64,000 nucleotides of DNA, from assembly GCA_963736235.1 (NCBI GenBank), contig CAVTOR010000032.1, forward strand, positions 109-64,108, in the 5' to 3' direction. The position numbers and the translations under genes are program-made. This document shows positions 1-19,265 of this stretch, in pieces; within the stretch, counting starts at the first letter, position 1, and every line of letters begins with the position of its first letter. The notes under the pieces are model-generated. The model was not told the DNA's origin. It was given only the letters and a program-made list of their open reading frames with translations, and searched no databases. This DNA comes from an uncultured Gammaproteobacteria bacterium. GTDB lineage: Bacteria > Pseudomonadota > Gammaproteobacteria > Chromatiales > Chromatiaceae.

Positions 1-1
1 T

Positions 2-256: not shown

Positions 257-290
257 CGCGCCAGGTGCAGAACGTCGTCCCTAACCCGGA

Positions 291-491
291 TCACCGGCGA
301 AAGAGCCAGATCACCAGAGACAATATGAGACTCAGGAGGATCCCGGTCGTCAGGGGCAGATAGAAGCGGAAGCCCTCGCGCTCGACGGCGATATCGCCGG
401 GCAGCCGTCCAAGGGGAAGCTTTGAGAGCCAGGGCCACAGCAGCCCGATGACCAGGATGCTGAGGCCGGCGACGATCAGGGCCTTCTGCAT
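291..491 (-). CDS. DUF2905-like small membrane protein
   Basis: 66 aa with two hydrophobic helices flanking 'LPGDIAVEREGFRFYLP', the DUF2905 pattern. Its start abuts the stop of the upstream radical SAM gene. Confidence 0.7.
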   Translation of the reverse strand: MQKALIVAGLSILVIGLLWPWLSKLPLGRLPGDIAVEREGFRFYLPLTTGILLSLILSLVIWLFRR

Positions 492-1595: not shown

Positions 1596-1740
1596 GCGTG
1601 CAACTCTAGCACTTGGCAGGCTGCCGGGCGCCGGTCCGTTAAACGGCGGTCCGTGGATCCTTGACCGGATCCTCGGCCGGTATGCATCGCGCGGCCATGA
1701 CAACAATGTTTCCGATTCAGAAACACGCAAAACGGCGTCT

Positions 1741-2124
1741 ATGCGAACCCTGATCCTGACCTACCCGAGGGAGATCGACGACCAAGCGCCGCTGGAGGGC
1801 AAGTTTCTTCAGCTCCTGTGGGCTGGTCGCACTTATCTGCTCTTCGCCAGCGCCGAGGAGCACCGCTACCACAACCAGATCCTCGGGCGTTTCCTCTCGG
1901 AGCAAGGTATCCCCCACCGCTGGGAGGGGGTGGAGAACCTGCTCGTGGATCACCCCGAGCTTTCGGTCATTGGGGGCGGACGCTTCCGTCTTGATCTCCT
2001 CACGAAGCAACTTCGGGTGTGGGATGCGTCCAGCGTTTACGGTCGCTTTGATGCGTCCGCCCTGTCAGTGCAGCTCGCCGCGGCGGATCCGCACTGGCAG
2101 GGGCTCGTACTCAGCGTCGCTTGA
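1741..2124 (+). CDS. hypothetical protein, possible Janus/PHPT1-like (14-kDa phosphohistidine phosphatase) fold
   Basis: 127 aa from ATG 1741. 'EEHRYHNQIL', 'IGGGRFRL' and 'LRVWDASSVYGRFD' line up by eye with the 'AEYHADIY ... LGGGRISH ... IHVYGYSMAYG' pattern of PHPT1. The family call is tentative. Confidence 0.45.
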   Translation: MRTLILTYPREIDDQAPLEGKFLQLLWAGRTYLLFASAEEHRYHNQILGRFLSEQGIPHRWEGVENLLVDHPELSVIGGGRFRLDLLTKQLRVWDASSVYGRFDASALSVQLAAADPHWQGLVLSVA

Positions 2125-2186
2125 GCCCGAATGCTCCGCGGTGAGAATGCAACGATTATGAGGTGCGAGCGGATCCTCACAGCCCG

Positions 2187-3365: not shown

Positions 3366-3438
3366 TGGCACGTTCCCAGCGAGTCCCATTTGTTTCCCGC
3401 AGGGCGCATCGGCCTGTTCGGGGGGCAGGACATTGATT

Positions 3439-4485
3439 CTATCTCTTTGCGTCTGGCACAGATTCGAACACTCGGGCCAAGCCGTCACGCTTCGGCAGTG
3501 GGTACGGCTCCCAGCCCGATCCGGTCCGTTGCAGGACTCGCGGCGGTCCCTCGGTGACCTCGCCGATCTCTGTGCAGGGGATACCCTCCTGTTCGAGGGC
3601 ACCGCGAATAGCCTCCGCATCCGGCGTCGGCGCGGTGAGAAGCAAAGCTCCGGAGGCAATGGCGGTGAGGGGATCGATGGCGAAGGCGGCGCACACCTGC
3701 CCCGAGAGCAGCGTGACCGATACCGCCGCCGGATCGAACCGCAAACCTCTTCCCGAAGCCTGGGCGAGCTCCCACAGGGCGGCGGCCAGTCCGCCCTCGG
3801 TAGGATCGTGCATGGCGGTGACCCGGCCGGCATCCAGGGCAATCCGGGCGTCCCGGGTGACCCCGATCCCCGGGTCGTTCAGGTAGCCTTGGGCCTGACT
3901 GAGGTCGGCGGCGGTCAGAACCTCTCTCAGCTGCTCCGACCGCTCCCGGGCCAGGATGGCGGTGGCCTCGATGGGGACGGACCTGGTCAGCAGCAGGCGG
4001 TCCCCCGGCTGGGCCCCGCGCGGGGTAACCAAGCGGTCCCGGTCTACCAGGCCGAGCAGGGACCCCACCGCCACCGGGCGGTCCAGCCCGTAGGTGATCT
4101 CCGTATGGCCTCCGACGAGGGAGATGTCCAGCCCCCTACAAGCGTCGCCGATCTGCCCGATGAGCCGTTCGGCCATGGCCTCGTCGGCCGTGTTCTCGGG
4201 TAGGAGCAGCGTGACCAGCAGCCAGCTGGGTGTGGCGCCGGTGGTGGCGAGGTCGTTGGCGTTCACCTGCACCAGATAGTCGCCGAGCTGGTCGGTGGCG
4301 AAGGTGACCGGGTCGGACTTACACACCAGAAGCTGCTCGCCCAGGTCAATCACCGCGCAGTCGAGACCCACGCCCGGCCCCACCAGGACGCGCGGGTCGT
4401 CGACCGGGGCCGCCGCCAGGAGACGAGCGAGTATCTCAGGCGGCAGCTTGCCGACGGGGAGCGATGGTGCGTCGCGATCGCGCAT
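3439..4485 (-). CDS. AIR synthase-related protein (PurM/HypE/ThiL superfamily)
   Basis: Motifs 'GLDCAVIDL', 'VNANDLATTGATP', 'LVGGHTEIT' and 'AMHDPTEGGLAAAL'. Start at ATG 4485 (MRDRDAPSLPVGKLPPE). Confidence 0.7.
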   Translation of the reverse strand: MRDRDAPSLPVGKLPPEILARLLAAAPVDDPRVLVGPGVGLDCAVIDLGEQLLVCKSDPVTFATDQLGDYLVQVNANDLATTGATPSWLLVTLLLPENTADEAMAERLIGQIGDACRGLDISLVGGHTEITYGLDRPVAVGSLLGLVDRDRLVTPRGAQPGDRLLLTRSVPIEATAILARERSEQLREVLTAADLSQAQGYLNDPGIGVTRDARIALDAGRVTAMHDPTEGGLAAALWELAQASGRGLRFDPAAVSVTLLSGQVCAAFAIDPLTAIASGALLLTAPTPDAEAIRGALEQEGIPCTEIGEVTEGPPRVLQRTGSGWEPYPLPKRDGLARVFESVPDAKR

Positions 4486-4896
4486 GGCGTTACTGTGCCA
4501 GTGCCGCGGCAGGCTTGTCACAACCGATCGTTTCCGGCTTCTGGATCGTCGCCTCGTTGGCGGCGAGTGCCAAGAGGGCCAATAGGCCCTGCACGCCCGC
4601 GCTCTGTAGTACCGCATTGACAGCCCAGTTCATCCGCGATGTCTGCGCGCGGCGGATTTGGTACCGGGATCTGGGCAGTGCATACCTGGCGAGAAGGTTT
4701 CTTCTAGACTGTGCAGGGAGTCCCGGGGAAGCAAGAAGGCCGCGGAGGAGACCGAGACTCCACCCGAGTGCTGGCCCTGCATGACGTTCGGTCACTGCAT
4801 CGCCGACGTCAACGGGGTCGAAGCCAAGCAACCAAGGTTTATCGAACGCAATTGTGGCGAAACCGGCGTAGCAGTGGATCGTACAGCGGCCTCCTT

Positions 4897-5658
4897 ATGA
4901 AGGCCGCGCTTGACTACGGTCGCCTGGGTTGGTCGGTCATCCCGATCGAGCCCCGCGGTAAGCGCCCGGTGATCCGCTGGCAGGTCTACCAGCACCGGCA
5001 CCCGGAAAAGATAGAGGTCGCCAATTGGTTCCGACACTGGCCGGACGCCAATATCGCCGTTGTAACGGGCATCGTCTCCGGTCTTGCGGTGCTGGACATC
5101 GACCCGCGCCATGGGGGGGATTCCAGTTTCCACGAATTGGAGCGCCAACATGGGCTCGCCACGGAGACCGTCGAGGCCCGCACCGGTGGAGGCGGGCGCC
5201 ATCTCTACTTCGCACATCCCGGCGAGATGCTGCACAACCGGGTCGGCCTCGCCCCGGGTGTCGACCTGCGCAGCGACGGCGGGTACGTGGTGGCGCCGCC
5301 CTCGGTCCACGCCAGTGGCGAGCCCTATCGGTGGGAACGCTCCCCTGATGTCTGCCCCTTGGCGCCGCTGCCGGACTGGCTGAGTGAGGCGTCGGAGGAA
5401 CAGGGCCATCGCGGACACCCGATCTCTCACTGGCGCCGCCTTCTGCGGGAAGGCGTTGGCGAGGGCGAGCGCAACAACAGCATCGCCTCCCTGGCCGGAC
5501 ACCTGCTGTGGCACGGCGTCGATCCCGAGGTCGCAACGGAGCTCCTGCTCGCGTGGAATGCGACGCGCTGCCGACCGCCGCTCGAGCCGGAGGAGGTCGT
5601 ACGCACCGTCGCGTCGATTAGCCGTCTCCACCAGCAGGGAGAGGACAGCGTTACCTGA
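4897..5658 (+). CDS. bifunctional DNA primase/polymerase (Prim-Pol, AEP superfamily) with PriCT-like tail
   Basis: Motifs 'GWSVIPIEPRGKRP', 'LAVLDIDPRHGG' (DxD), 'TGGGGRHLYF' (sxH), 'GVDLRSDGGYVVAPPSVHASG', then 'ERNNSIASLAGHLL'. Start at ATG 4897. Confidence 0.75.
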   Translation: MKAALDYGRLGWSVIPIEPRGKRPVIRWQVYQHRHPEKIEVANWFRHWPDANIAVVTGIVSGLAVLDIDPRHGGDSSFHELERQHGLATETVEARTGGGGRHLYFAHPGEMLHNRVGLAPGVDLRSDGGYVVAPPSVHASGEPYRWERSPDVCPLAPLPDWLSEASEEQGHRGHPISHWRRLLREGVGEGERNNSIASLAGHLLWHGVDPEVATELLLAWNATRCRPPLEPEEVVRTVASISRLHQQGEDSVT

Positions 5659-5672
5659 CGCTGAACCCTGCT

Positions 5673-6167
5673 TCATCCAGACTTATCATTCAGACTCGAG
5701 CCGGCTGCCAGCAGCTCCGGCCGAATCATCCAGGCCAATACCCACCGACTCTCCGCGTCCTTTTCCAGGCAGGCCATGGTCCCGGGCTGAAAGGCGAGCA
5801 GCGGCCGATCCGGGTCCGCGGCGAGCAGCAACGAGGCCAGCCGCCCGAGGTAGGGCAGGTGACCCACGATCAGGGTATCGACGGACCAGAAGGCGATCTC
5901 CGGGGAGACCTTCTCGAGGGGATCCTTCGGTCCCAGACCGGCGTGTTCCTGCGGCTCCCCGGTGGAAAGCAGGGCCTCGGCCAGAATCGCCGCGGTCTGC
6001 TCGGCCCGGGTCTTGCCGCTGTGCAGGGCCTGGCCGACTTGGATGCCGGCTTTGTCCAGGAACTCGGCGAGGCGCCGCACGTCCTCGCGGCCTTGCTCGT
6101 TCAATGGTCGGTCGGGGTCGACGTCCTTGGGGACGGCCAGGCCGTGTTGGGTGAGATAAATGCGCAT
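5673..6167 (-). CDS. sixA: phosphohistidine phosphatase SixA-like
   Basis: Histidine-phosphatase layout 'MRIYLTQHGLA ... SGKTRAEQTA ... IVGHLPYL'. The usual RHG motif reads QHG here. Confidence 0.75.
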   Translation of the reverse strand: MRIYLTQHGLAVPKDVDPDRPLNEQGREDVRRLAEFLDKAGIQVGQALHSGKTRAEQTAAILAEALLSTGEPQEHAGLGPKDPLEKVSPEIAFWSVDTLIVGHLPYLGRLASLLLAADPDRPLLAFQPGTMACLEKDAESRWVLAWMIRPELLAAGSSLNDKSG

Positions 6168-6189
6168 ATCAGGCTCTGATCGTGGTGGT

Positions 6190-6483
6190 TCAGGTGGAGG
6201 ACAGGCGGGTCTCGGCGCGGCGGGCGCTGTCGTACAGGGTCATCTCCCAGCGGTCCTCGATGGTGTCCTGGCGCAGCAGGTAGATGCCGCCGTCGTCGCC
6301 GCGCAGCTTGAAAAAGCGATGGCGCGGGTCCAGCCACCGTTCGATGATCTCGGTCACGGTTACCTCGCGCCGTCCAATATGCAGTAGACGGGGCTCGGCG
6401 TCCGCACGATGACCGGCGTAGCACTCGACCCGGAGGGCTGTTTCGTCGTCCGTGCCGGCGTCTTTCTCCAAAGGTTCGCTCAT
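6190..6483 (-). CDS. hypothetical protein (97 aa)
   Basis: ATG 6483 overlaps the stop of the upstream gene (ATGA). Coding-like composition, no family recognised. Confidence 0.5.
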   Translation of the reverse strand: MSEPLEKDAGTDDETALRVECYAGHRADAEPRLLHIGRREVTVTEIIERWLDPRHRFFKLRGDDGGIYLLRQDTIEDRWEMTLYDSARRAETRLSST

Positions 6484-6761
6484 CGTTTCTCCTCCAGGGA
6501 AATCAGCGGCTCGCTGATCCAAGTCCCCTTGCAGCGCGGGCACTTGCCCGGCTTGTGCAGCTTGTGCTCGTCGAACCGGAAGCCGCACTTGCGGCAGGTC
6601 GCGGGCGTGATCACCGGGCACAGGGGATCCTTACGCAGTGAGCGGAGCAGGTGCTGCAGGTCGTCCTCCAGATCCCGCGGCCTTTCGTCGAGCAGCAGGG
6701 CCAGCTCGTGCAGCGAGATGGGGCGTTCCTTGAGAATGTCGATCAGGTCCCTGCGGAACAT
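6480..6761 (-). CDS. HTH + zinc-ribbon transcriptional regulator (COG3357-like)
   Basis: N-terminal winged-helix-like 'LIDILKERPISLHELALLL' and a C-terminal 'CRKCG...CPRCKG' ribbon. Confidence 0.6.
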   Translation of the reverse strand: MFRRDLIDILKERPISLHELALLLDERPRDLEDDLQHLLRSLRKDPLCPVITPATCRKCGFRFDEHKLHKPGKCPRCKGTWISEPLISLEEKR

Positions 6762-7842
6762 GGCTCCTCCGCTTCCCGGGTCAGGCCGCGTGGATCGGCT
6801 GGTCCTGGCCGTACCTGGACGGTGGCGGGACCGCCGAGGGGGCCGTCCACGCAGATCTCCGCCGGCAGGAACAGCCGAATCACCTCCGCGTTGGTGAGCA
6901 GGTGCGCGGTGACCTGGCTAGTGCGCAGCTCGGAAGGTCCGTCGGCCAGCGCCAGCGGTAACAGGAGCTGGTCGGCCAGCCAGGGATCGACGGCGCCGTC
7001 GCTGCCCAGGAAGGCCACCAGCGCATCCACCGCCTCGTCGGCCACGCGCTCCGCGCGCTTGCCGCGGGCGCCGAGGGCGAAGCAGCAGGCACGGCCGGGC
7101 TCGCATTCTGCCAGCAACAGAAGGACGGTGCCCCGGCTGGCCGCCGGAAGTTCTTCGACGATGACCTCGGGCTCTATGTCGGGCAGCAGGTTTTGCAGCC
7201 GGCGCAAGGCCTGGCGGCGCTGGCGCTCGGCGATCTCCCGCGGCAGGTTGGCGACGGCGGAAAGTCCGCGGACGGATCGAAGAGGACCGCGCTCGGTTAG
7301 TCGAAATGGCTTCGGGCGGGCGACGCCAGGGATCTGCGTTTGTAGCTCGCCGCCGCCCTGGGGGTAGAAGCCGGCCATGGTCATGGTCAGATCGAAGGGG
7401 ACACCGATTGGTTGAGAAACGGACGCCACTGCCAGTCCAGGTAGTGAAAACAGGGGCTCCAGGGCACGTGAGTACCCCCGCGGATGGTGATGCTCGATGT
7501 GCCCGGTGCCCGCGCCAGCGGCAGCAGCAGGGTCTGCAGCACCAGCGAGGTGGCCCCGGCGGTGCCGATGTCGAAGAAGTAGTCGCCTGGCCGCACTGGA
7601 CCCGGCGCGAAAGCGATCTCCTCGGAGCCGACCCGGTCGCCTCGGACTTCGGCGCTGGCCACTCGTGCGGCGGCCCGCACCGCCGCCAGGTGCTGGGGCC
7701 GTAGTCCGGGTCGGTCCCGGTTGGAGCGGATGCGCGAGAGGCGAAAGCACTGTCCGGTCAGCAGGGACAGGCTCAGCGCGCTGCGTAGCACTTGGCCGCC
7801 GCCTTCGCCCATGGCGCCGTCGACTTCGATCGGTGTCGTCAC
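6743..7842 (-). pseudogene. rtcA: RNA 3'-terminal phosphate cyclase RtcA, one frameshift near 7405-7425
   Basis: The N-terminal half ('EVDGAMGEGGGQVLRSALSLSLLTG ... FDIGTAGATSLVLQTLL ... GGTHVPWSP') is in the frame of ORF 7387..8076. The C-terminal half ('GFYPQGGGEL ... DPWLADQLLLPLALA') is in the frame of ORF 6743..7750. Probable GTG start at 7842. Confidence 0.75.
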
Positions 7843-8059
7843 CCTCGTCCTCGCGCTCAGCTCATTGCGCCATTGCCCCTCTATTCGATTGTAGGCAATC
7901 GACCCGTTCGCTAAATCGGGCCCATGGTTCGGATCAGGTTCTCGATAACCGCGGTCGCGCGCCGAATGATCTTCGCCGATACGCCACAAGTTACCGTCCG
8001 GGGCGGCATCGGCGTTGGTGTTGGTCAGCTTCTTGGAGTCAGTCTGGGGATCCTTCCGC

Positions 8060-8815
8060 TCACGGAGATCGTGCATCGAATCGGCCGTTGCGAAGAAAGT
8101 GCAGCGTCTGGTCGATGACCTCGTTCGCGTTCATGATGAACGGGTGGGAATAGGGGAGCACCAGGAAATCGGCCATACCCTCGACCTTTGCTCGCTCCAC
8201 CGACACCTTGCCGTCGTCTGTCCCGGGAATGACGTCGGCAAGCCAGACATCGAATAAGCTGTGTTGGTTGCCGGTGATGATACCCAGCGGAAAGTCTACC
8301 GGTCCGAGCTGCTCGGGAAGTCCCTCGGGGCCGGTCACGAGCTGTTGTCCTGCGGGGCCGTTGAACCACTCGTAAAGGGCCGAATCTCGCAGGTGATCGG
8401 CGGCCTCGCTGCCCTGATTCGGTGGGCTCAGCATGACGACCCGGCCCAGATTCTCGGGCCGATGTCGACTCAGGTAGTAGCGTACCAGTACCCCGCCCAT
8501 GGAGTGCGTAACGAAGTGAATGGTCCGGGCCTGCATCCCGGCGCAGCGGCTCAAGCCGCGCCCTATCGTCTCCATCGCCAGGTTTTGGATCGTCTTTTTG
8601 CGCGATGGGTAGTCGAGATTCACCGGTCTGAATCCAGCAGCCTGCAGAGCGTCCGCCATCTTGCTCAGGGAGCGGCTTGTCCTGCCGAGCCCGTGCAACA
8701 GGATCACGCATTCCGGACCTACGGTTGCCCGTTCTTTTTCTTGGCCCGCGCCGACCTCGGGAGGACCGAGGACAACGAGCGCGAGAATCAAGAGCGTGAA
8801 TGTGGTTCTGCGCAT
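8060..8815 (-). CDS. secreted alpha/beta hydrolase (lipase/esterase-like)
   Basis: Signal peptide 'MRRTTFTLLILALVVLG', then 'LLHGLGRTS' and the nucleophile elbow 'THSMGG'. Confidence 0.75.
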   Translation of the reverse strand: MRRTTFTLLILALVVLGPPEVGAGQEKERATVGPECVILLHGLGRTSRSLSKMADALQAAGFRPVNLDYPSRKKTIQNLAMETIGRGLSRCAGMQARTIHFVTHSMGGVLVRYYLSRHRPENLGRVVMLSPPNQGSEAADHLRDSALYEWFNGPAGQQLVTGPEGLPEQLGPVDFPLGIITGNQHSLFDVWLADVIPGTDDGKVSVERAKVEGMADFLVLPYSHPFIMNANEVIDQTLHFLRNGRFDARSP

Positions 8816-8953
8816 TGATCGTGCACCCGGACCTTGGCCCGCAGGACGTGGACGACGCTCTCGTGTCTGAGGAAGTTGAGCCGTTCGACCGAGCCTTGCA
8901 GGTGTTCAGGTGCGGTCGCTACCGACTTTGGATGTTGGTGAAGCATTCGCCGC

Positions 8954-9388
8954 TCAACGCCCCGCCGTCTCGGGACCCTCGCCGCCGAAGCGGGTCGCGA
9001 AGATAACCAATGACCAGGCCGATGATGGCACCCTCGGCGGTGAACCAGAACGGAGATCGGATAACCCGTCCTCACCGAACATCGCGACGAGCATCGCCGC
9101 CATCGTGTCGTAGGCAAAGAAGGTCAGTACGAAGTTCATCCAGGCGCCCACGAACGGGGCGCGGAACCACCAGGGCAGCGGAAGCTTCAGGATCGGGTGG
9201 CGGGTATAGACGCCAAAGACCCCAATGATCGCGCCGACGGTCGTGTACCACAGCAGGATGCCCCATCGGAACAGCCAGCCCGCATCCGGGAGAAAGGACG
9301 GCAGCAGCAGAAAGCCCGCAAGGCCGAAGAGAAAGCCAATGCCCTTGCCGATGGCGATGCGTGTGGTCAAGGATGGGTTGTCGAACAT
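8954..9388 (-). CDS. integral membrane protein, family unknown
   Basis: About 4 hydrophobic helices. The last ~40 codons may be affected by compensating indels (see the rejected list). Confidence 0.5.
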   Translation of the reverse strand: MFDNPSLTTRIAIGKGIGFLFGLAGFLLLPSFLPDAGWLFRWGILLWYTTVGAIIGVFGVYTRHPILKLPLPWWFRAPFVGAWMNFVLTFFAYDTMAAMLVAMFGEDGLSDLRSGSPPRVPSSAWSLVIFATRFGGEGPETAGR

Positions 9389-9403
9389 ACCTGCTCCGAG
9401 GGG

Positions 9404-10342
9404 TTACGGGTGGATTGACTGCGTGCCATTCTGCAGGCAGCGGTCCCAGTAAGGGACGCCGGCGAAACGCGTAGCCAGGAAGTCGACAAACGCCCGAACA
9501 CGCTGGGACAAATGCCTGGTACGAGGGTAGATCGCATGGGCGTAAATTGTCGGCCATTGGAAGTCCGAAAGGATGGGGATCAGCTTCCGTTCCTCGATCG
9601 ACCGATAAAGGATAAAGCTCGGTTCCAGGACGATGCCGTGACCGTCCTCCGCGGCTTGGCGCAGGCAGTCTCCGTTGTTGGCCCGCAAACGCGCTCGGAC
9701 CTGCACGCTGCCCTGCCGGCCGGTGGAATCGGAATATGCCCAGACACCGGGGTTGCGCGCATTGGCGTAGATCAGGCAGTGGTGGTCGGCGAGCTCGGCG
9801 GGACTGCGGGGGGTGCCGTGCTCCGCCAGGTAGGCAGGACTCGCGCAGACCACATGGCGCACGGGTGCGAGCCGCCGGGCGATCAGCGTGGAATCGGCGA
9901 GCTCCGCGATCCGTACCGCCAGGTCGAACCCTTCGGCAAGCAGGTCGACCTGCCGGTCGTTGAGGTCCAGGTCGAACTCGATCCCCGGGTGCGTCCGCAG
10001 GAAGTCGTCGATAGCCGGGCCCAAGTGGTTCAGGCCGAACGAGAGGGGGACCGCCACCCGCAGCCGCCCCTGCAGATCGCCGTGTTGCTGCGAGACCGCC
10101 AGCTCCGCCTCCTCGACATCGGCGAGGATGCGCAGGCAACGCTCGTAGAAACTCCGTCCGGTGTCCGTCAGATCGAGTCGGCGGGTGGTGCGGCGAAACA
10201 GCTGGATCGACAGGCGCTCCTCCAGGTCCGCCAAGCGGCGGCTGACGGCCGACTTGGCGATGCCAAGGCGCTCCGACGCCGCTGTGATGCTGCCTGCCTC
10301 CACCACGCCGACGAAGGTGCGCATCTCTTCGAATCGATCCAT
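9404..10342 (-). CDS. LysR-family transcriptional regulator
   Basis: HTH 'FVGVVEAGSITAASERLGIAKSAVSRRLADLEERL' plus a LysR substrate-binding domain. Divergent from the azoR-like gene. Confidence 0.9.
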   Translation of the reverse strand: MDRFEEMRTFVGVVEAGSITAASERLGIAKSAVSRRLADLEERLSIQLFRRTTRRLDLTDTGRSFYERCLRILADVEEAELAVSQQHGDLQGRLRVAVPLSFGLNHLGPAIDDFLRTHPGIEFDLDLNDRQVDLLAEGFDLAVRIAELADSTLIARRLAPVRHVVCASPAYLAEHGTPRSPAELADHHCLIYANARNPGVWAYSDSTGRQGSVQVRARLRANNGDCLRQAAEDGHGIVLEPSFILYRSIEERKLIPILSDFQWPTIYAHAIYPRTRHLSQRVRAFVDFLATRFAGVPYWDRCLQNGTQSIHP

Positions 10343-10473
10343 TGTTCTCGATCGCGGGAAAGTGATTTCGCCATCGTACCCTTTATACGCCGTGGAGCAA
10401 TGCCAAACTGTCCCCTAACGGCGCGCCAAGGTGCGCCCCGGCAATTCGGCAGACACATACCCGAGGTACTCAG

Positions 10474-11133
10474 ATGCAAACGAGGAATGACCATCATCCG
10501 CGGTTCGGCAACCTGAAGGTGCTGCGCGTGGACAGCAGCGCCCGCTCGGAAGGCTCGATGAGCCGCAGGCTCGCCGACGAACTGATCGAGCAACTGCAGC
10601 AAAACGAGGGCGCGGTCGAGGTCAGGGTACGGGATCTCGCGGTCGAAGCCCCGTCCTTCGTCGATGCGGACTGGGTGGACGCCAACTTCACGCCCGCGGA
10701 GCAGCGCAGCGAGGAGCAGAAGGTGGCGCTCGCGGAGTCTGACGCCCTGGTTTCCGAACTCAAGTCCGCCGATGTCCTGGTCATCGGCGTGCCGATCTAC
10801 AACTTCGGGATTCCATCGGCACTCAAGGCCTGGGTGGACATGGTCGCGCGTGCTCGGCTCACCTTCCGCTATGCGGACAACGGCCCCGTGGGACTTCTGA
10901 AAGGCAAGCGGGCCTACCTGGCGGTCGCATCGGGCGGCACGGCGATCGGCAGTGAGATGGACTTCGCCACCGGCTACCTGCGCCATGTGTTGGGTTTTCT
11001 GGGGATCGACGATGTGCACGTCGTGGCGGCCGATCGACTGATGGCGAGGGGAGAAGAAGAGGCAGTGCGCAATGCCCGCGCGCAGATCGATCGTTTGCTA
11101 CCTGCTCCCGAGCCGCTTGCGGAGACCGCCTGA
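10474..11133 (+). CDS. azoR: FMN-dependent NADH-azoreductase
   Basis: Motifs 'LRVDSSAR' and 'VIGVPIYNFGIPSALKAWVD', flavodoxin-like fold. The start could lie a few codons downstream. Confidence 0.8.
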   Translation: MQTRNDHHPRFGNLKVLRVDSSARSEGSMSRRLADELIEQLQQNEGAVEVRVRDLAVEAPSFVDADWVDANFTPAEQRSEEQKVALAESDALVSELKSADVLVIGVPIYNFGIPSALKAWVDMVARARLTFRYADNGPVGLLKGKRAYLAVASGGTAIGSEMDFATGYLRHVLGFLGIDDVHVVAADRLMARGEEEAVRNARAQIDRLLPAPEPLAETA

Positions 11134-11176
11134 GCGGATCGAAAAACGCGATGTCCCACGGGGTCGAGTAGACAGC

Positions 11177-12130
11177 ATGAAGACGAACACGGCCGGAGCG
11201 TTCATTCGCTCGGAATCTAGCTTCCGAAACTGGGTGACGGTGGACGGTCGTCCGGGGCCGTCAGGGGAGGGCGGATTTCAGGCAGCGCCTGGGCGCTATC
11301 ACCTGTACGTGTCTTATGCCTGCCCCTGGGCCCATCGCACCCTGATCTTTCGGAAGCTGAAGGGACTGGAGCGGGCGATTTCGGTTTCAGTGGTCCATCC
11401 GCTGATGCCGGCGGAGAGTTGGGTGTTCGGAGACTATCCCGGCTCGACTCCGGACCATCTGCACGGGTTCCGGAAGCTACACCAGCTATACAACCAAAGT
11501 GCGCCTGGATTCGACGGGTTGGTGACCGTACCTGTCCTGTATGACAAGCAGTGTCGCGTCATCGTCAACAACGAGTCGTCCGAGATCATCCGCATGCTCA
11601 ACGGAGCCTTCGACGAGTGGGGACGCAAAGCCGTCGATTTCTACCCTGAACCCCTGCGCGCCGAGATCGATGCCATCAACGCGGTCGTCTACGAGAACGT
11701 CAACAACGGTGTGTACCGGGCGGGATTCGCAACGACCCAATCGGCCTATGAGGCGGCCTTCGATCGGTTGTTCGAGACACTTGATGACTTGGAGGCGCGC
11801 CTGTCAGCGCAGCGCTATCTGGTCGGAGACAGGCTGACGGAAGCCGACTGGCGGCTGTTCACGACCTTGGTGCGCTTCGATGCGGTCTACCATGGACACT
11901 TCAAGTGCAACCGCCGCCGGCTGGTGGACTATCCGAATCTCTGGGCGTACACCCGCGACTTGTACCAGGTGCCCGGCGTCTCGGAGACGGTGAACATGGA
12001 CCACATCAAACTCCACTACTACGGCAGTCACCGGGGAATCAATCCGACGGGTATCGTACCCAAGGGTCCCGAACTGGATTTTCTGGCGCCCCACGGGCGC
12101 GGTGAAGCCGGTGCACGACTCTATGCGTGA
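11177..12130 (+). CDS. glutathionyl-hydroquinone reductase (Xi-class GST, YqjG-like)
   Basis: Motifs 'RYHLYVSYACPWAHRTLI' (CPWA active site) and 'VPVLYDK...IVNNESSEIIRML'. ATG at 11177. Confidence 0.85.
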   Translation: MKTNTAGAFIRSESSFRNWVTVDGRPGPSGEGGFQAAPGRYHLYVSYACPWAHRTLIFRKLKGLERAISVSVVHPLMPAESWVFGDYPGSTPDHLHGFRKLHQLYNQSAPGFDGLVTVPVLYDKQCRVIVNNESSEIIRMLNGAFDEWGRKAVDFYPEPLRAEIDAINAVVYENVNNGVYRAGFATTQSAYEAAFDRLFETLDDLEARLSAQRYLVGDRLTEADWRLFTTLVRFDAVYHGHFKCNRRRLVDYPNLWAYTRDLYQVPGVSETVNMDHIKLHYYGSHRGINPTGIVPKGPELDFLAPHGRGEAGARLYA

Positions 12131-12171
12131 AGCCAATGGAATGACGTGATCGCGATGGCGGAGAGAGGACG

Positions 12172-12760
12172 ATGTGGGACCAGCGTTACGGCAGTGAAGA
12201 ATACGCCTACGGGACCGAGCCCAACGAGTTCCTATTTGCCATGTCATCCAGGCTGCCGATGGGCAGGGTCCTGTGCCTTGGCGAAGGAGAAGGTCGCAAC
12301 GCCGTGTGGTTAGCCCGGCAGGGTTACGAGGTGACGGCGGTGGACGCCTCACGAGTCGGGCTTGAGAAGGCGCAACGGCTCGCGGCGGAGCACGGGGTGA
12401 GGATTTCGACGGTGCACGCGGACCTTGCGGATTACGACATCGGCCGGAGGTACTCGCATGGCATCGTCTCCGTTTTCTGTCACCTTCCACCGGCTCTTCG
12501 CGCCGACGTCCACCGCCGCTGCATCGTTGGTCTGCGCCCGGCGGCGTTATGCTGCTCGAGGCCTACAGGCCGGATCAGCTGGCGCATCGGAACCGGCGGG
12601 CCGCCCGCGGCAGAGCTGATGATGGACGCAGGAAACAGTGCGCGCGGAGCTCGCCGGCCTCGAGTTTCTGCACCTGCAAGAGTGCGAACGCGAGATACAT
12701 GAAGGCGCGTTCCACGACGGGCTTGGCGCGGTCGTTCAGATGGTGGGGCGAAAGCCATAG
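12172..12760 (+). pseudogene. class I SAM-dependent methyltransferase, three frameshifts (about 12541, 12587, 12637)
   Basis: 'VLCLGEGEGRNAVWLARQGYEVTAVD' (SAM motif I) is in frame 1. The reading then passes to 'MLLEAYRPDQLAH' (frame 2), 'GTGGPPAAELMMDA' (frame 1) and 'VRAELAGLEFLHLQECEREIHEGAFHDGLGAVVQMVGRKP*' (frame 3). Confidence 0.7.
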
Positions 12761-12856
12761 GTGGTCCGCCTTTTCTGATCGCTCGCGCCGATGGTGGGCC
12801 GCCCTTTCAGGTGATCCAGAATTACCTGTTACGTGACCTTATCAGCATTCTGAAAT

Positions 12857-12875
12857 TATACGCAGATAACGTATA
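12857..12875 (+). promoter_or_regulatory. perfect palindrome TATACG-N7-CGTATA 10 nt upstream of higB (putative HigA operator overlapping a -10-like TATACT)
   Basis: Read directly from the sequence. The identical element is at 16751-16769 in front of the second copy. Confidence 0.4.
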
Positions 12876-12884
12876 CTTGTGCGC

Positions 12885-13244
12885 ATGAAGCTCGTCTTCT
12901 TCGAAACCCCGATCTTCACGCGGCTACTGCCTACCTATCTGGACGACGAAAGCTACAGAGCCCTCCAACGCCTGTTGCTGAGCTCGCCCGAGGCGGGCGC
13001 TGTCATGCCGGGCACCGGCGGTTTCCGAAAGCTCAGATGGGAGGATCCACGACGCGGAAAGGGCAAGCGGGGTGGTCTGCGGATCATCTACTTCTACCTT
13101 ACCGCGGATCGTCAGATCTGGTTCTTTACGATTTACGGAAAAGGTGAGGCCGTGGATCTCAGCCAGGAGGAGAAGAAGGCGTTGAAGAAAGCGATCCAAG
13201 CCGAGTTGGCCCTCAGGAGAAAAAGCGATGACCGGCAAGCGTAG
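12885..13244 (+). CDS. higB: type II toxin HigB-2 family (RelE/ParE superfamily)
   Basis: 'MKLVFFETPIFTRLL...GTGGFRKLRW...GKGKRGGLRIIYFYL...WFFTIYGKGEAVDLS' closely follows the Vibrio cholerae HigB-2 pattern. Toxin-first gene order. Confidence 0.8.
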   Translation: MKLVFFETPIFTRLLPTYLDDESYRALQRLLLSSPEAGAVMPGTGGFRKLRWEDPRRGKGKRGGLRIIYFYLTADRQIWFFTIYGKGEAVDLSQEEKKALKKAIQAELALRRKSDDRQA

Positions 13245-13560
13245 ATTGTTCGACGAGCTCATGGACGGCGTCGAGTCCATGGAGCGGCACCGCAAGGGCA
13301 AGATCACGCTTCGTTCAATCGAGGCCGATGATCTCGCGCCTCTCGAGATCGATGCCGAACTGATCCGTGACACCCGGGAACGGATGAATGTTTCGCGGGC
13401 GGTCTTTGCCCGTAGATTGCGAGTATCGACCCGCACGCTGGAGAACTGGGAACAGGGGCGGGCACGTCCGAACGCGCAAGCCGCCGCCCTCATCTTGATG
13501 GTAAGGAAGTATCCGGACACGCTTGAGAAACTTAGTGGTTTGGACAACCGGGCAGCGTGA
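13228..13560 (+). CDS. higA: HigA-2-type antitoxin (XRE-family HTH, COG2944-like)
   Basis: Motif 'IRDTRERMNVSRAVFARRLRVSTRTLENWEQGRARPNAQAAALILMV'. Overlaps the toxin stop by 17 nt. Confidence 0.8.
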   Translation: MTGKRRLFDELMDGVESMERHRKGKITLRSIEADDLAPLEIDAELIRDTRERMNVSRAVFARRLRVSTRTLENWEQGRARPNAQAAALILMVRKYPDTLEKLSGLDNRAA

Positions 13561-13792
13561 AGAGCAGGTTGCACGCATGGCTTCCCGAGCCACCCTTGTT
13601 CTCGCTCTGTTCATTGCATTCTTTTCTAGCGTGTATCCAAACTCCCAAGCACGGTGTTCCCGCACACCGGTCAAATCTCAGCCCCAGCGTTCTCAAAACT
13701 CCCTTGTATGTCCTTGTATTCATTTGTATCGACATGCAGGTCTGATTGTAGCGGGGAAGATTCGAAAAACGTTTAAAAACAATTGGATAAGG

Positions 13793-13853
<61 letters not shown>

Positions 13854-14186
13854 ATTTCAAAGACTTACGCATCATAGAACACCTGCAAGAGCAGGCTTGA
13901 TCGGCGGTTCACCGATTTGCATCCGACATCAGCCGTTCCGCAAGAAACAAACGTAAAACAAGAAGGTGGGGCGCAAAGCTCTCGTCGATTCGCGATATAA
14001 AAACGCCCACAGATCTTCTTCTCAAAACTTTCTTCAGACTTTCTGATAACACCGTTCTCCAGTGGCGGATTTTCCGCGGCGCTGCTGCCTTTGGCGGGTT
14101 ACTGTTGAGTGCGCGATTCTAGGCGGCGAAATGCCGTCGACGCGTTTTGCGGTCCTGTTGGTATCGTCCTCGGATCCGTGCCCCAT

Positions 14187-16673
14187 TTACTTTCCGCGTT
14201 CGAAGTCCAGCTCTAGATGAACGTTCTCGGGCGTCTCGTTTGTTCGGTAACCCATGGCGCGGTAGCCGCGCAGGCGTTTCTCGAACATTCGCGCGAGCAT
14301 CGGAACATGATCGTCAACGTAGTCCACGACGCGGACCTCATGTTTTGACGGGTGGATTCGGTGAAGTCGCCCGGCGTATTGCACTAAAGTCCCCTTCCAC
14401 GCAACCGGTAAAGTAAGAAACAAGGTGTCCAATCGCGCATCGTCGAAACCCTCACCGATGAAGCGACCGGTTGCGAGCAAGAGCCGCTCTTCGGATTCCG
14501 GAATCGATTCCAGCTGGGTTTGGACGGCACGTCGTTCTTTGGCCGAGCGGCCACCGTGCAGCACGACGATGTGCTCCACCAAGCCCAGAAGCCGTTCCTG
14601 AAGAAGTTCCAGGTGCTGCTTTCGTTCGGTCAATAAGATCGGGGAGCGTTGCTCTCCAAGTGCCTCTAACACGTCGTGGATGATCGCCGTGTTGCGGCCT
14701 TCATCGCGTGCCAGTAAACCGTAGATTTCCTGTATCGTCAGCTCATGGGCGTTCTCCGGGAACTCAAAATCCGTGTGACGGACGACCAGCCGATGCCGAA
14801 ATGGACGCTTCGCGTCCGGTATCCTCGGATCGACATTATGCCGTGTAGGACCGAGTTGCATGTGAAGGATCGGTTGGTGACCGTCTCTTCGGTGAGGTGT
14901 GGCGGTCAATCCGACGACGTAGCGAGCTTTCACCTCGGAAAGGACGCGCTCGAAGGAGACGGCCGGCAGGTGATGACACTCGTCCATGATCACCTGTCCG
15001 TATTCGGCCACAATGTCGTCGACGGCTTCTTTTCGCGCAAGGCTTTGCACCATCGCTACGTCGATCACGCCGGTCACCTTTCGCCTGCCGCCGCCGATCT
15101 GTCCGATGGACCTTGAGGGGATCCCGAGAAAGACTTCGAGCTGAGCCTTCCACTGTTCGAGCAGGGGTTGCCGATGAACGAGAATCAAGGTGTTTGTTTC
15201 CCGTGCGGCCAAGAGGTAGATTCCCAGCACTGTCTTACCGGTACCGGGAGGTGCGACCAAAACCCCTGTGTCTTGCTGCAACAGTGCTGTGGCCGCTTCC
15301 GCTTGGATGTCGGTGAGGTTGCCGCGGAAGGTCACATCGAGATGATTGCCGCTGACACGGAGATCCTCAACCACGAGCTTGCTGCCGTAGCTCTGCAGCA
15401 GATCATCAAGGTCGTCGCGGCATCCCCTCGGAAGGCTCACGTGCTCCGGGTAGTCCTCGGCGCAGTTGATAACCCTTGGCGTCAGAGCGGTGGAGAGCCG
15501 CAGAGACTGCTTCTTGTAGAACTCGGGATTCTGGAAGGCCGCCAACCGCTTGACTGCGTTTAGCAAGGGAGACGGGAGGGCCGCCTTTTCCACGTAAAGG
15601 CGTTGCGACAGTACTGCGTGAATCGTAGGCGGGATCGGTTCGCTGATGACAGGCCGCTGGGGCTTGCGCGAGGGTTCACGTAGCCAGGGCTGTAGATCCT
15701 GCTTTTCATCTCCTGCTTCGGCGATCCGCAGTCCGATGACCTGGCCGCGACTAGCAGCCGCTGCGGCGACCTCCGCAACACGTGCCGTCTCGATTCGCGG
15801 CAAGCGGGAGAGATATTCCCACTGATCGACATAGGGCTCGAAGTCGTCATCGAGGAATAGGGTGTTTCCCTCTTGTCGCGGATGAAACTGAAGGGGCAGG
15901 GCAATGAGATTGCCGAATCCGCCAGCAGGCATTGTGTCCTGATTCGGAAAGAGCCGATCGTAGGAGTTCATGTCCAGCTGATCTCGACGGGACATCGTCT
16001 CGGTGATCAAAAAGCAACCCATCTGACGTGCGATGGCGGCCGGCACCGGTTGCGCGAAGAAGAACCAGAGGTGGGCGCCGTTTCCAGACCGGGAACGCTC
16101 GATTGCGCAGGGTAGGTCAGTCGCCCAACAGGTCTCGGCGAAGGCAGTTACGTCGTCGCGCCACTTAGCCTTGTCGAAATCCACCGCGAGGAACCAACAG
16201 GTCTCGTCTGCGAGCAAGGGGTAAACACCGATGGTGTGCCGTCCTTGCAGGTGATCCAGAATGACCTGTTCCGTGACTGGCAGGAACGCCTGGTTGGGAC
16301 ACACGCTGCACTTGATGCGGGGTTTGCCGCAAACGCCTGGCCGCCACTCGTTGCTGCAGGCTGGCGAGTAGCCCTTCTTTCCGGAGCGCGTGTTGACCCA
16401 GAGCTTTGGGTATACGTCTGTCCGTCCGCGAAAGAGTCGTCGGAACAGATCGACCTTCTGTTCCGGAGACAACGGGGGTGCGTTACCCACCTGCGTCTCG
16501 GCCCCTCCAGGCGCTGCGTCGGAATCGACGGAGACGCGTTGGGTGGTGAACTCCGCTCGCAGGGACTGCAGCCGCGCGATGAGCTTCTTCTCACGCTCCT
16601 TGAGTTCTGCGAACTCCGCTTCCGCGGCGGCAATTTGTCGCAGCAACGATGGCTTTTCGCCCTGGATCGTCAT
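14187..16673 (-). CDS. archaeo-eukaryotic primase (AEP) domain - SF2 DEAD/DEAH helicase fusion protein
   Basis: N-terminal coiled coil, then a Cys cluster 'CSNEWRPGVCGKPRIKCSVCPNQ'. AEP motifs: 'WFLAVDFDK' (DxD), 'SGNGAHLWFFF' (sxH), 'GGFGNLIALPLQ'. Helicase motifs: I 'APPGTGKT', II 'DECHH', III 'LTATP', VI 'QYAGRLHR'. Confidence 0.85.
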   Translation of the reverse strand: MTIQGEKPSLLRQIAAAEAEFAELKEREKKLIARLQSLRAEFTTQRVSVDSDAAPGGAETQVGNAPPLSPEQKVDLFRRLFRGRTDVYPKLWVNTRSGKKGYSPACSNEWRPGVCGKPRIKCSVCPNQAFLPVTEQVILDHLQGRHTIGVYPLLADETCWFLAVDFDKAKWRDDVTAFAETCWATDLPCAIERSRSGNGAHLWFFFAQPVPAAIARQMGCFLITETMSRRDQLDMNSYDRLFPNQDTMPAGGFGNLIALPLQFHPRQEGNTLFLDDDFEPYVDQWEYLSRLPRIETARVAEVAAAAASRGQVIGLRIAEAGDEKQDLQPWLREPSRKPQRPVISEPIPPTIHAVLSQRLYVEKAALPSPLLNAVKRLAAFQNPEFYKKQSLRLSTALTPRVINCAEDYPEHVSLPRGCRDDLDDLLQSYGSKLVVEDLRVSGNHLDVTFRGNLTDIQAEAATALLQQDTGVLVAPPGTGKTVLGIYLLAARETNTLILVHRQPLLEQWKAQLEVFLGIPSRSIGQIGGGRRKVTGVIDVAMVQSLARKEAVDDIVAEYGQVIMDECHHLPAVSFERVLSEVKARYVVGLTATPHRRDGHQPILHMQLGPTRHNVDPRIPDAKRPFRHRLVVRHTDFEFPENAHELTIQEIYGLLARDEGRNTAIIHDVLEALGEQRSPILLTERKQHLELLQERLLGLVEHIVVLHGGRSAKERRAVQTQLESIPESEERLLLATGRFIGEGFDDARLDTLFLTLPVAWKGTLVQYAGRLHRIHPSKHEVRVVDYVDDHVPMLARMFEKRLRGYRAMGYRTNETPENVHLELDFERGK

Positions 16674-16750
16674 CTCAATGTCTCACGCTTGGCGCGGTAA
16701 CAGCGGTGCGAGAGCGGCAGGGGGCGCAGGCTTGATCAGCATTCTCAGAT

Positions 16751-16769
16751 TATACGCAGATAACGTATA
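16751..16769 (+). promoter_or_regulatory. second copy of the TATACG-N7-CGTATA palindrome, in the 105-nt divergent region between the AEP-helicase and higB copy 2
   Basis: Read directly from the sequence. Confidence 0.4.
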
Positions 16770-16778
16770 CTTCTGCCC

Positions 16779-17138
16779 ATGAAGCTCGTCTTCTTCGAAA
16801 CTCCAGTCTTTACGCGCCTACTGCCTACCTACCTGGACGACGAAAGCTACAGAGCCCTCCAACGCCTGTTGCTGAGCTCGCCGGAGGCCGGCGATGTCAT
16901 GCCAGGCACGGGGGGGTTTCGGAAGCTCAGATGGGAGGATCCAAGACGCGGAAAGGGCAAGCGGGGTGGTCTACGGATCATCTAGTACTACCTTACCGCG
17001 GATCGTCAGATCTGGTTCTTTTCGATCGACGGGAAAGATGAAGCTGTGGATCTGAGCCAAGAGGAGAAAAAAGCGTTGAAGAAAGCAATCCAAGCCGAGT
17101 TGGCCCTCAGGAGAAAAAGCGATGACCGAAAAGCGTAG
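16779..17138 (+). pseudogene. higB: higB-2 family toxin, copy 2, in-frame nonsense codon at 16983-16985
   Basis: Copy 1 reads 'atc atc tac ttc tac ctt'. Copy 2 reads 'atc atc tag tac tac ctt' (TAC to TAG). The frame stays open and homologous downstream to the TAG at 17136-17138. Confidence 0.75.
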
Positions 17139-17454
17139 CTTGTTCGACGAGCTCATGGACGGCGTCGAGTCCATGGAGCAGCACCGCAAGGGGAAGATCA
17201 CACTTCGTTCAATCGAGGCCGACGATCTCCCGCCACTCAAGGTCGACGCCGAATCGATCCGCGACACTCGGGAGCGGATGAATGTGTCGCGGGCGGTCTT
17301 TGCCCGCAGATTGCGAGTATCGACCCGCACGCTGGAGAACTGGGAACAGGGGCGGGCGCGGCCGAACGCGCAAGCCGCAGCCCTGATCTTGATGGTACGG
17401 AAGTATCCGGACACGCTCGATAGGCTCAGTGGATTGGACAACCGGGCGGCGTGA
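17122..17454 (+). CDS. higA: HigA-2-type antitoxin, copy 2 (intact)
   Basis: 110 aa, about 90% identical to copy 1 by eye. Confidence 0.8.
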   Translation: MTEKRSLFDELMDGVESMEQHRKGKITLRSIEADDLPPLKVDAESIRDTRERMNVSRAVFARRLRVSTRTLENWEQGRARPNAQAAALILMVRKYPDTLDRLSGLDNRAA

Positions 17455-17729
17455 CGAGCAGGTTGCGTTCATGGCTTCCCGAGCCGCCGTTGGCTTCACG
17501 TTATTCGTTACATTCTTCTCCCGCGTGTATCCACACTCGCAAGTACGGTTGTAAGTGATCAACAAAGCACCCGTCTCCCGCAGAACGAGGGAGCGCTCAA
17601 GCATCCGTCGGCCAGGTAATGGTTTCTGACTTTCAGAGACTTACGCGCTTGAAAATGGCGTTAGATCCATGTGCCGCGGGAAGCGCTGTCTTGATCTGTG
17701 TTTACCTTATGCCGCGTGTATGCGCTTGA

Positions 17730-19265
17730 TCAGGGCAGCAGATTCTCGGCGCGGGCGAACTCCCTCTCCAGTCCCTCACGGCGGGCGGCCCCGTCCGTCA
17801 GGCTGAAGATCCAGATGGCCAGCAGGGACAGCAGGAATCCCGGGACGATCTCGTAGAGATCGAACAGGCCGCCTTCGAGCTGCTTCCACACCACGACCGT
17901 GACCCCACCGGTCAAGACCCCGGCGAGCGCTCCGCGCCGCGTCATGCGCGGCCAGTACAGCGACAGGATCAGAGCCGGGCCGAATGCGGCACCGAAGCCG
18001 GCCCAGGCGTAGCTGACGAGATCGAGAATCAGCGTGTCCGGGTCCATGGCGAGCAGAAAGGCGAGCCCGGAGAGCACCACGACGGAGGCGCGCCCGACGG
18101 CCACCAACTCGCGCGGCCCCGCTGCGCGTCGCAGCACGGTGCGGTAGAAGTCCTCGGTGAAGGCGGATGAAGACACCAGCAGCTGGGAGTCGGCGGTACT
18201 CATGATTGCGGCCAGTATCGCCGCCAGACAGATCCCGGCGATCACCGGATGAAAGAGCAGACCCACGAGCTGGATGAAGACCTTTTCGCGATCGCCTCCT
18301 GCGAGCGGCGGATCGAGAATCAGGATCCCGGCGAGTCCCGAGAGCATGGCGCCGACGAGGGTGATCGCCACCCAGGAAACGGCGATGCGCCGCGCGCCCG
18401 TCACTTCCGCCGGGGAGCGGATGGCCTGGAATCTCGCCAGGATGTGCGGTTGGCCGAAGTAACCGAGCCCCCAGGCGGCGAGAGAGATGATGCCAACGAT
18501 GCCCAGGGCCTGGCCGTCGGCCCCGGTGAAGAGGGTCAGCAGGTTGGGGTCGATCGATTCGATGCGAGCCAATCCGACGCCAAGGCCACCCGCTTGCGAG
18601 AATGCCGCGATGGGCGCGGCCACCAGGGCGACCGCCATCAGCAGACCTTGGATGACATCGGTCCAGGAGACGGCCAGAAAGCCGCCCACGGCGGTGTAGA
18701 TCAGGATTGCCAGCGCTCCCGCGGCGACCGCCCAAAGGTAGGGCAGGCCGAAGACGGACGCGAACAGCTTGCCGCCAGCGGCGAGTCCGGAGCCGGTGTA
18801 GATAAGGAAAAAGAGCAGAATAAAGAAGGCGCAGATGCCGCGCAGCCATCCGCTGTCGTCGCCGAAGCGGTTGGCGAAGTATTCCGGCAGGGTGAGGGAG
18901 TCGCCGTAGGCCTCGCTGAACACCCGCAGCCGCACCGCCAGCAGGCGCCAGTTGAACCAGGTGCCGGCGAGCAGGCCACCGGCCAGCCAGACGGATTCCA
19001 GTCCCGACGCGTAGGCGAAACCCGGCAGCCCGAGCAGCAGCCAGCCACTCATGTCGGAGGCGCTGGCGCTGAGCGCCGCCACGCCGCCGCCAAGGCGGCG
19101 CCCGCCGAGGATGAAGTCCGAGAGATCGGCGGTCTGGCGATAGGCGTACCAACCGATGAAGAGCACGACGGCGAAGTAGGCGCCAAAGGTCAGGGCGATT
19201 GTCAGGTCGTCTTGCGCCAAGGTCTCGCCTCCGGGGTTAGGAGATCGCGCGGGTTGTTTGGCCAC
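17730..19265 (-). CDS. putP: sodium:solute symporter, PutP-like (sodium/proline)
   Basis: Motif 'DFILGGRRLGGGVAALSASASDMSGWLLLGLPG' and a multi-TM SSS-family layout. The true start may be a few codons downstream. Confidence 0.8.
   Translation of the reverse strand: MAKQPARSPNPGGETLAQDDLTIALTFGAYFAVVLFIGWYAYRQTADLSDFILGGRRLGGGVAALSASASDMSGWLLLGLPGFAYASGLESVWLAGGLLAGTWFNWRLLAVRLRVFSEAYGDSLTLPEYFANRFGDDSGWLRGICAFFILLFFLIYTGSGLAAGGKLFASVFGLPYLWAVAAGALAILIYTAVGGFLAVSWTDVIQGLLMAVALVAAPIAAFSQAGGLGVGLARIESIDPNLLTLFTGADGQALGIVGIISLAAWGLGYFGQPHILARFQAIRSPAEVTGARRIAVSWVAITLVGAMLSGLAGILILDPPLAGGDREKVFIQLVGLLFHPVIAGICLAAILAAIMSTADSQLLVSSSAFTEDFYRTVLRRAAGPRELVAVGRASVVVLSGLAFLLAMDPDTLILDLVSYAWAGFGAAFGPALILSLYWPRMTRRGALAGVLTGGVTVVVWKQLEGGLFDLYEIVPGFLLSLLAIWIFSLTDGAARREGLEREFARAENLLP

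Follow-up and report, generated by a model that had tools for sequence, protein, structure and literature searches.

An IEE-family AEP polymerase and SF2 ATPase fusion gene between two higBA copies in the accessory region of an uncultured Chromatiaceae bacterium

The insertion sequence (IS) excision enhancer IEE of Escherichia coli boosts the transposase-dependent excision of elements of the IS3, IS1 and IS30 families (PMC9943667; preprint 10.1101/2023.06.07.543989). As described in PMC9943667, the IEE polymerase prefers Mn, is error-prone and slips primer and template, and the enzyme uses both of its domains to join 3' overhangs sharing at least 4 bases of microhomology. Its SF2 domain is described there as a DNA-dependent ATPase which does not unwind duplex DNA, but is needed to hold two ends together. 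Homologues of IEE are reported from many phyla in the preprint by Chandler (10.1101/2023.06.07.543989), together with the same structural match to the CRISPR adaptation primase-polymerase CAPP that we obtained. Here we describe a gene of this architecture from an uncultured gammaproteobacterium of the family Chromatiaceae. It lies on the minus strand of a stretch of 64,000 nucleotides (contig CAVTOR010000032.1, C32 in the following), which is called the window throughout. A preliminary description, made from the letters of the window, had considered its product a candidate conflict-system or element-replication protein.

The open reading frame (ORF) 14187-16673 encodes 828 amino acids without an internal stop, and its product is, judged by sequence, almost certainly a member of the IEE/Z1568-like family of AEP and SF2 fusions. 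IEE itself is represented in our comparisons by ECs_1305 (NP_309332.1), annotated as 'IS-excision enhancer IEE' on the chromosome of E. coli O157:H7 Sakai. Both proteins align over 796 columns with 46% identity and 63% positives (residues 20-810 against IEE 9-776). In a Pfam scan, residues 72-301 matched AEP-TOTE (331 bits, cut-off 27), residues 452-595 ResIII/DEAD and residues 673-773 Helicase_C. These domains agree with the AEP motifs LAVDFD (D165/D167), GNGAHLWFFF (H201) and GGFGNLIALPL and with the SF2 motifs, i.e. Walker A (K480), DECH (564-567) and motif VI (R769), all of which had already been called intact in the preliminary description. Sequence and fold searches against the PDB led from the C-terminal half to XPB-type SF2 proteins and from the AEP half to the CAPP protein of Marinitoga (7NQD, TM 0.76 by target length in the structure search).

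The catalytic and nucleotide-binding positions of IEE, as named in PMC9943667, could be carried over to the window protein. D142/D144/D216 correspond to D165/D167/D239, H178 to H201, K451 to K480, R735 to R769, Y128 to Y151, S171 to S194 and G176 to G199. Thirteen of 14 mapped positions (10 cited in that paper and four cysteines) are identical, and these 13 are invariant in all 42 sequences of our residue alignment, consisting of IEE and 41 of 120 homologues. The catalytic residues, whose non-conservation would have counted against the preliminary description, proved conserved on alignment.

The four cysteines form a cluster noted before, although with another spacing: C-x7-C-x8-C-x2-C is absent, and the cluster reads C-x8-C-x6-C-x2-C (C106, C115, C122, C125) and is located within the AEP domain. 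It is kept in 42 of 42 aligned sequences and, by pattern, in 118 of 120 proteins, and presumably binds metal. The role of this cluster seems to be undiscussed in PMC9943667, because the word 'cysteine' occurs 0 times in its main text (the supplements lay outside the search). An AlphaFold model of the 828-residue protein (mean pLDDT 72, pTM 0.52) is silent on metal binding, because the pLDDT of the Cys4 region is below 50. At the N-terminus, the model predicts a long helix at residues 7-49 (pLDDT 84-90 across residues 11-40), a probable coiled coil, which is consistent with the coiled coil postulated earlier ahead of the catalytic domains. One contig of 366 nt from an RNA library, showing one difference, was not counted as evidence for expression, since it could derive from DNA.

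Window protein and IEE share the same two-domain order over their full length, and neither gene has a fixed partner gene; both are located in islands of hosts containing IS3-family elements. In contrast to IEE, the window protein has a slightly longer N-terminal helix and C-terminal tail, and while IEE is encoded in SpLE1, the window gene is flanked by two higBA copies and an att-type scar of tRNA-Pro (Table 1). Understood broadly, the IEE family comprises proteins in which an AEP domain and a C-terminal SF2 DExH domain are collinear with IEE and the catalytic residues are present. Its distribution is patchy and island-borne, with IS3/IS1/IS30-type elements in the host, and all of this was observed here. 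Homologues were found in 17 of 300 same-class genomes and 5 of 40 relatives, but not in two genomes of the same genus. All 8,000 scored candidates of the homologue search reached E<=1e-50, so the family comprises at least 8,000 sequence clusters. In a quick IQ-TREE tree of 47 proteins (SH-aLRT support, without bootstrap; 7 broken or partial loci among the 43 were left out), IEE and the window protein belong to a joint clade of 37 rows (SH-aLRT 99), which excludes the Bacteroidota member and most Bacillota. The IEE clade proper consists of 12 rows (SH-aLRT 100), whose members are 57-72% identical to IEE. By its place in this tree, the window protein is not IEE in the narrow sense, but belongs to a sister subclade. 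We see in the gene a typical representative of a large family already described, and no new defence or replication system.

Table 1. Features of the window at and around the IEE-like gene
Feature	Position	Strand	Remarks
Predicted IEE-family AEP polymerase / SF2 ATPase fusion gene	14187..16673	-	intact, 828 aa; 46% identity to IEE ECs_1305 over 796 columns
AEP domain (Pfam AEP-TOTE; Z1568-like family)	15771..16460	-	catalytic D165, D167, H201, D239; Pfam and fold match
SF2 (XPB/RadD-like) ATPase, two RecA folds	14355..15320	-	K480, DECH, R769; Pfam, PDB sequence and fold searches
N-terminal long helix aa 7-49, probable coiled coil	16527..16655	-	AlphaFold model; IEE equivalent shorter
Cys4 cluster C106-x8-C115-x6-C122-x2-C125, within AEP domain	16299..16358	-	corresponds to IEE C83/C92/C99/C102
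higBA copy 1 block	12841..13655	+	higB 12885-13244, higA 13228-13560, both intact; palindrome 12857-12875
higBA copy 2	16779..17454	+	higB broken by TAG 16983-16985; higA 17122-17454 intact
Divergent intergenic region, 105 nt	16674..16778	.	only 16674-16734 outside duplicated higBA block
Palindrome TATACG-N7-CGTATA overlapping -10-like hexamer	16751..16769	+	probable HigA operator
Remnant of second IEE-like gene copy, 50 nt	12788..12837	-	45/50 identical to 16228-16277; joined to higBA copy 1 start
3' fragment of tRNA-Pro(GGG), starts at anticodon loop; att-type scar	13808..13853	+	45/46 nt identical to intact tRNA-Pro, contig C6
Dispersed genomic repeat, right edge of accessory region	17619..17709	.	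58 other BLAST hits in genome

We consider it probable (about 0.6) that the window protein works like IEE, i.e. that its polymerase is error-prone, that its SF2 ATPase does not unwind DNA and that it promotes IS excision by microhomology joining. The enzyme would be cargo of a horizontally acquired island. Transposases of the IS3, IS1 or IS30 type would make DNA ends or bridged intermediates serving as its substrate, and their resolution by microhomology joining would remove the IS with or without flanking DNA. A possible substrate is present in the host, namely an IS3-family element with orfA/orfB (HTH_Tnp_1, HTH_21, rve and rve_3 domains) and TG...CA-type ends. It is present in two complete copies of about 1,388 bp, 98% identical to each other, and in a partial one on contig C12. 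The host genome contains IS110-type transposases, too. The patchy distribution of the family, the lack of a close counterpart of the region in same-genus genomes and the transposase or tyrosine integrase genes close to homologues (8 of 32 loci, and all three plasmid loci opened) also speak for this reading.

Several points weigh against this reading. The IS load of the assembly is low, with just the two full IS3 copies and no IS256, though repeats often remain unassembled. IEE residue Q175, the sole mapped mismatch, is N198 in the window protein. The latter stands in a separate clade of 16 rows (SH-aLRT 100) outside the IEE clade proper, and because of this sister position we can only infer its IEE-like function; in the cited papers, IS excision appears to be shown for E. 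coli IEE only. Within 6 kb of 32 homologue loci, genes of toxin-antitoxin (TA) type (type II, AbiE, Fic, PIN, zeta; 21 of 32 loci) are commoner than transposases or tyrosine integrases (8 of 32), which would fit a defence role as well. Finally, no tyrosine integrase was detected on C32, the 13 matches being located on other contigs, and since the intact tRNA-Pro is on another contig, too, the ends of the island cannot be closed. Separately from these points, an enzyme footprint was considered at the junction of the gene remnant and higBA copy 1, and this idea was rejected because the microhomology there amounts by eye to at most about 1 base.

The neighbourhood counts refer to 296 of 348 ORFs within 6 kb (the 52 omitted ORFs are mostly short or distant) and to thresholds of E<=1e-8 and 1e-10. 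Restriction-modification or Druantia parts occurred in 4 of the 32 loci, a DUF927 gene in one, parAB in another, and TOTE partners or cas genes in none. In 7 of the 43 loci (L051, L055, L061, L068, L024, L074, L076), which belong to several tree branches, a gene for AbiEii is situated directly upstream of the IEE-like gene and has the same orientation; two are near-identical, leaving 6 independent cases. In at least 4 of these 7 loci abiEi precedes abiEii, and an abiE-iee operon is possible. The AbiEii profile was built from 10 AbiEii ORFs of the homologue loci, and its background in same-class genomes is 129 of 301. Plasmids carry homologues as well (109 of 72,556, 95 of them near full length), and the three plasmid loci opened adjoin IS3, tniABQ, IS630 or integrase genes. 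On plasmid NZ_CP116695.1 (L117), a co-directional transposase-tniB-tniQ cluster immediately precedes the IEE-like gene, which may be transposon cargo or occupy an accessory position. A genome of the same family (G012) contains two IEE-clade genes (L054, L014), each adjoining a Fic gene.

How do other explanations compare with an IEE-like function? The element-replication role proposed earlier would make the protein the replicative primase-helicase of its carrier element. AEP-helicase fusions are, according to PMC5862659, common replicases of mobile elements, and the plasmid-borne homologues as well as the DUF927 and parAB loci fit such a role. The protein itself, however, contains no origin-binding domain in the Pfam scan and no PriCT family at E<=0.1, which had also been proposed for searching, and IEE does not unwind DNA (PMC9943667). 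In 50,697 phage records no match reached 80% query coverage, and those listed (25 of 64) are confined to the helicase half; the opened plasmid loci adjoin mobility genes, not rep genes. With a replication- or partition-type gene in 2 of 32 loci, our phage, plasmid and neighbourhood scans did not place the homologues in replication modules, and we regard this role as very unlikely. Even more improbable, to the point of being nearly negligible, is a CRISPR adaptation primase-polymerase of the CAPP-helicase type. The window protein resembles CAPP_A proteins of this type in that a helicase domain comes after a related AEP fold (7NQD/7NQE/7NQF), it matches Marinitoga CAPP in fold and sequence, and the PADLOC PrimPol model PDLC01465 gave 291 bits. 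Against this stand the NCBIfam model CAPP A1 (NF040561), which scored 104.5 and thus below its cut-off of 200, the lack of a cas1/cas2 link, TPR or PriCT, and the absence of cas genes from the homologue loci. No Cas1 was found in the host genome (90% complete; the control search was positive in 7 of 14 genomes). Moreover, PMC8211822 describes the helicase fusion as the most prevalent architecture of non-CRISPR CAPP homologues, typically in mobile elements. Membership in a CRISPR system is unsupported. The same applies to TOTE conflict systems, defined by TPR, OB, TBP and Effector (definition cited in PMC12458937). The AEP domain clearly exceeds the threshold of the TOTE family PF22548, and RefSeq names E. 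coli homologues accordingly, but an adjacent TPR-OB or TBP partner is missing. Neither TPR-OB(CSD) nor TBP genes were detected among the 7 window neighbours or the scanned ORFs of the 32 loci; TBP-TOTE had 0 matches genome-wide, with a control search positive in 0 of 14 genomes, and TPR-OB was searched at the loci only. Here, AEP-TOTE describes a domain and not a system. The conflict-system label of the preliminary description exists in Pfam and RefSeq, whereas the closest characterised relative, IEE, has been shown to act in IS excision and microhomology end-joining, and neither in defence nor in replication.

A defence function is unlikely, but deserves more weight than replication or CRISPR adaptation. 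The protein would be a stand-alone or TA-coupled factor of a defence island directed against phages or mobile elements: the SF2 ATPase would sense or bind invader DNA, the AEP domain would make aberrant DNA or a signal, and IS excision would be a facet or side effect. Since the homologue neighbourhoods are rich in TA genes, this idea keeps some indirect support. The upstream co-oriented AbiEii genes, the listing of the domain under a predicted conflict system (Pfam AEP-TOTE) and the same HigBA subfamily adjacent in 3 of 9 other genomes carrying this subfamily point in the same direction. However, TA genes crowd islands in general, there is no fixed partner, and AbiEii was not found in the host genome. 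The proposed check against defence models yielded no whole-protein model, because the PADLOC matches were CRISPR-associated PrimPol models or restricted to the helicase part. The titles and abstract openings listed in literature searches (subscription papers outside their scope) report neither defence by the IEE family nor a link between abiE and iee. A more general version, which we judge less likely still, sees the IEE family as a mobile-element immunity factor repeatedly coupled with TA modules, IS excision being one case. The polymerase would then spoil the DNA-end intermediates that invading IS elements or phages form, while the TA pair would serve as a guard or as an abortive fallback; the Cys4 insert might act as a sensor that binds metal or as a module contacting the transposase. 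Couplings that may be cited for it are an abiEi-abiEii-iee operon in at least 4 tree branches, iee and higBA arranged in tandem within the IEE clade, and their divergent arrangement in the window.

The annotation 'TOTE conflict system primase' should be corrected for proteins of AEP-SF2 architecture, which are IEE homologues. The window protein offers a non-enteric member of a sister clade for asking whether IS excision is family-wide. The locus itself is of little weight, given that one member of a family of this size has been characterised biochemically. Only the recurring coupling with AbiE and HigBA might have follow-up value; if functional, it would tie IS control to anti-phage defence.

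The 105-nt divergent gap between the gene and higB including its palindrome, from which the preliminary description derived a possible co-regulation of the gene by HigA, was confirmed. In addition, we found that higBA is present twice, that the adjacent higB carries an in-frame TAG and that an intact copy is located on the other side of the gene. Both blocks (12841-13655 and 16735-17549, 815 nt) are 89.3% identical, and their codon differences are mostly synonymous (25 vs 8 in higB, 19 vs 9 in higA). Co-regulation by HigA through the common region, which would be compatible with any function of the protein, seems quite doubtful to us. The palindrome is located 78 nt upstream of the start codon of the gene, there are two intact higA genes nearby, and the gene remnant abuts higBA copy 1 as well, suggesting that the pairing occurred twice in this lineage. 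Yet a divergent higBA was present in 0 of 37 homologue loci having at least 1 kb upstream. The palindrome has exactly two copies in the genome, one ahead of each higB, and elsewhere it precedes higB (<=2 mismatches) in 9 of 10 loci, 7 of them without an IEE-like gene nearby; it appears therefore to be the operator of higBA itself. A consensus scan of 12600-17800 revealed no promoter-like site on the minus strand; its 2 sites compared with 1.5 expected are weak evidence either way, and the -10-like hexamer overlapping the palindrome is on the plus strand. Because the divergent layout is not repeated and the palindrome belongs to higBA, co-regulation remains without support, and higBA probably does not control the IEE-like gene. 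More plausibly, higBA would regulate itself via the palindrome and may help to keep the island in the population.

The HigB subfamily was detected in 9 of 299 other same-class genomes, and no homologues were found in viral contigs or, at E<=1e-25, in plasmids. In 3 of the 10 higBA loci (flanks of 1.5 kb, some cut by contig ends), an IEE-like gene or its 3' part adjoins higB, always upstream and on the same strand. Conversely, 2 of 43 IEE-like loci contain higBA homologues, both downstream. HigBA and IEE-like genes share 3 genomes, compared with about 0.5 expected from 9 and 17 of 300 genomes, respectively, although related genomes are not independent samples. These data suggest that the physical association recurs beyond chance, but that the divergent control region does not. 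In L061 (G276), L069/L111 (G154) and L113 (G278), the same HigBA subfamily directly follows the stop codon of an IEE-like gene; the palindrome is situated a few bases past this stop, and in two of these cases higB is apparently broken.

Probably two related units of gene and higBA were once stacked at an integration site of the accessory region, and one was nearly deleted; the duplicated higBA block, the 50-nt remnant of the gene and the piece of tRNA-Pro would be what is left of them. The remnant matches codons 133-149 of the gene at 90% identity (local score 80, maximum 37 in 200 shuffles), and its junction with higBA copy 1 is spanned by contigs of two other sequencing runs. The tRNA-Pro fragment lies between higA copy 1 and the 3' end of the gene and was not recognised by tRNA prediction. 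A known arrangement is that of islands in tandem at a tRNA gene, with the crossover in the anticodon loop. The 46-nt fragment begins at this loop, too, but here the contig lacks an integrase and the intact tRNA is located elsewhere. A joint resulting from excision of the gene between the higBA blocks was not observed in 4 runs, whose contigs never span the stretch. For positions 1-17,700 of the window, neither same-genus genome (completeness 88% and 97%) gave a close match, and sequence common to them resumes at 17,712. At the 3' end of tRNA-Pro(GGG), each of these genomes parts from the host sequence or its contig stops. In both, the putP side joins host contig C12 and not C6, and the att fragment could not be linked to the intact tRNA-Pro on C6.

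Some further observations concern the surroundings of the gene. Downstream of the intact tRNA-Pro(GGG) on C6 (1-2909, L001), a HIT gene, an RHS fragment and an ISAzo13-type transposase precede the contig end. This tRNA serves as a hotspot for integration in the two same-genus genomes, one of which (G002) has a second att-like fragment. The repeat at 17619-17709 belongs to a REP- or MITE-like type of about 60-90 nt which is abundant in these two genomes as well. A second, unrelated primase-polymerase (4711-5658, plus strand; Pfam Prim-Pol and PriCT_1) is encoded in the same accessory region and would suit the role of an element replication protein better than the product of the IEE-like gene. 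The gene at 12172-12780, encoding a methyltransferase, looks frameshifted and may be a pseudogene or an assembly error; contigs of other runs show an inserted base near 12537-12539. The accessory region also contains a radical SAM gene (492-1730, minus strand), apparently of the AmmeMemoRadiSam type. Memo/AMMECR1 and radical SAM genes flank the 66%-identical homologue of the IEE-like gene in G024 as well (L051, 9411-12178).

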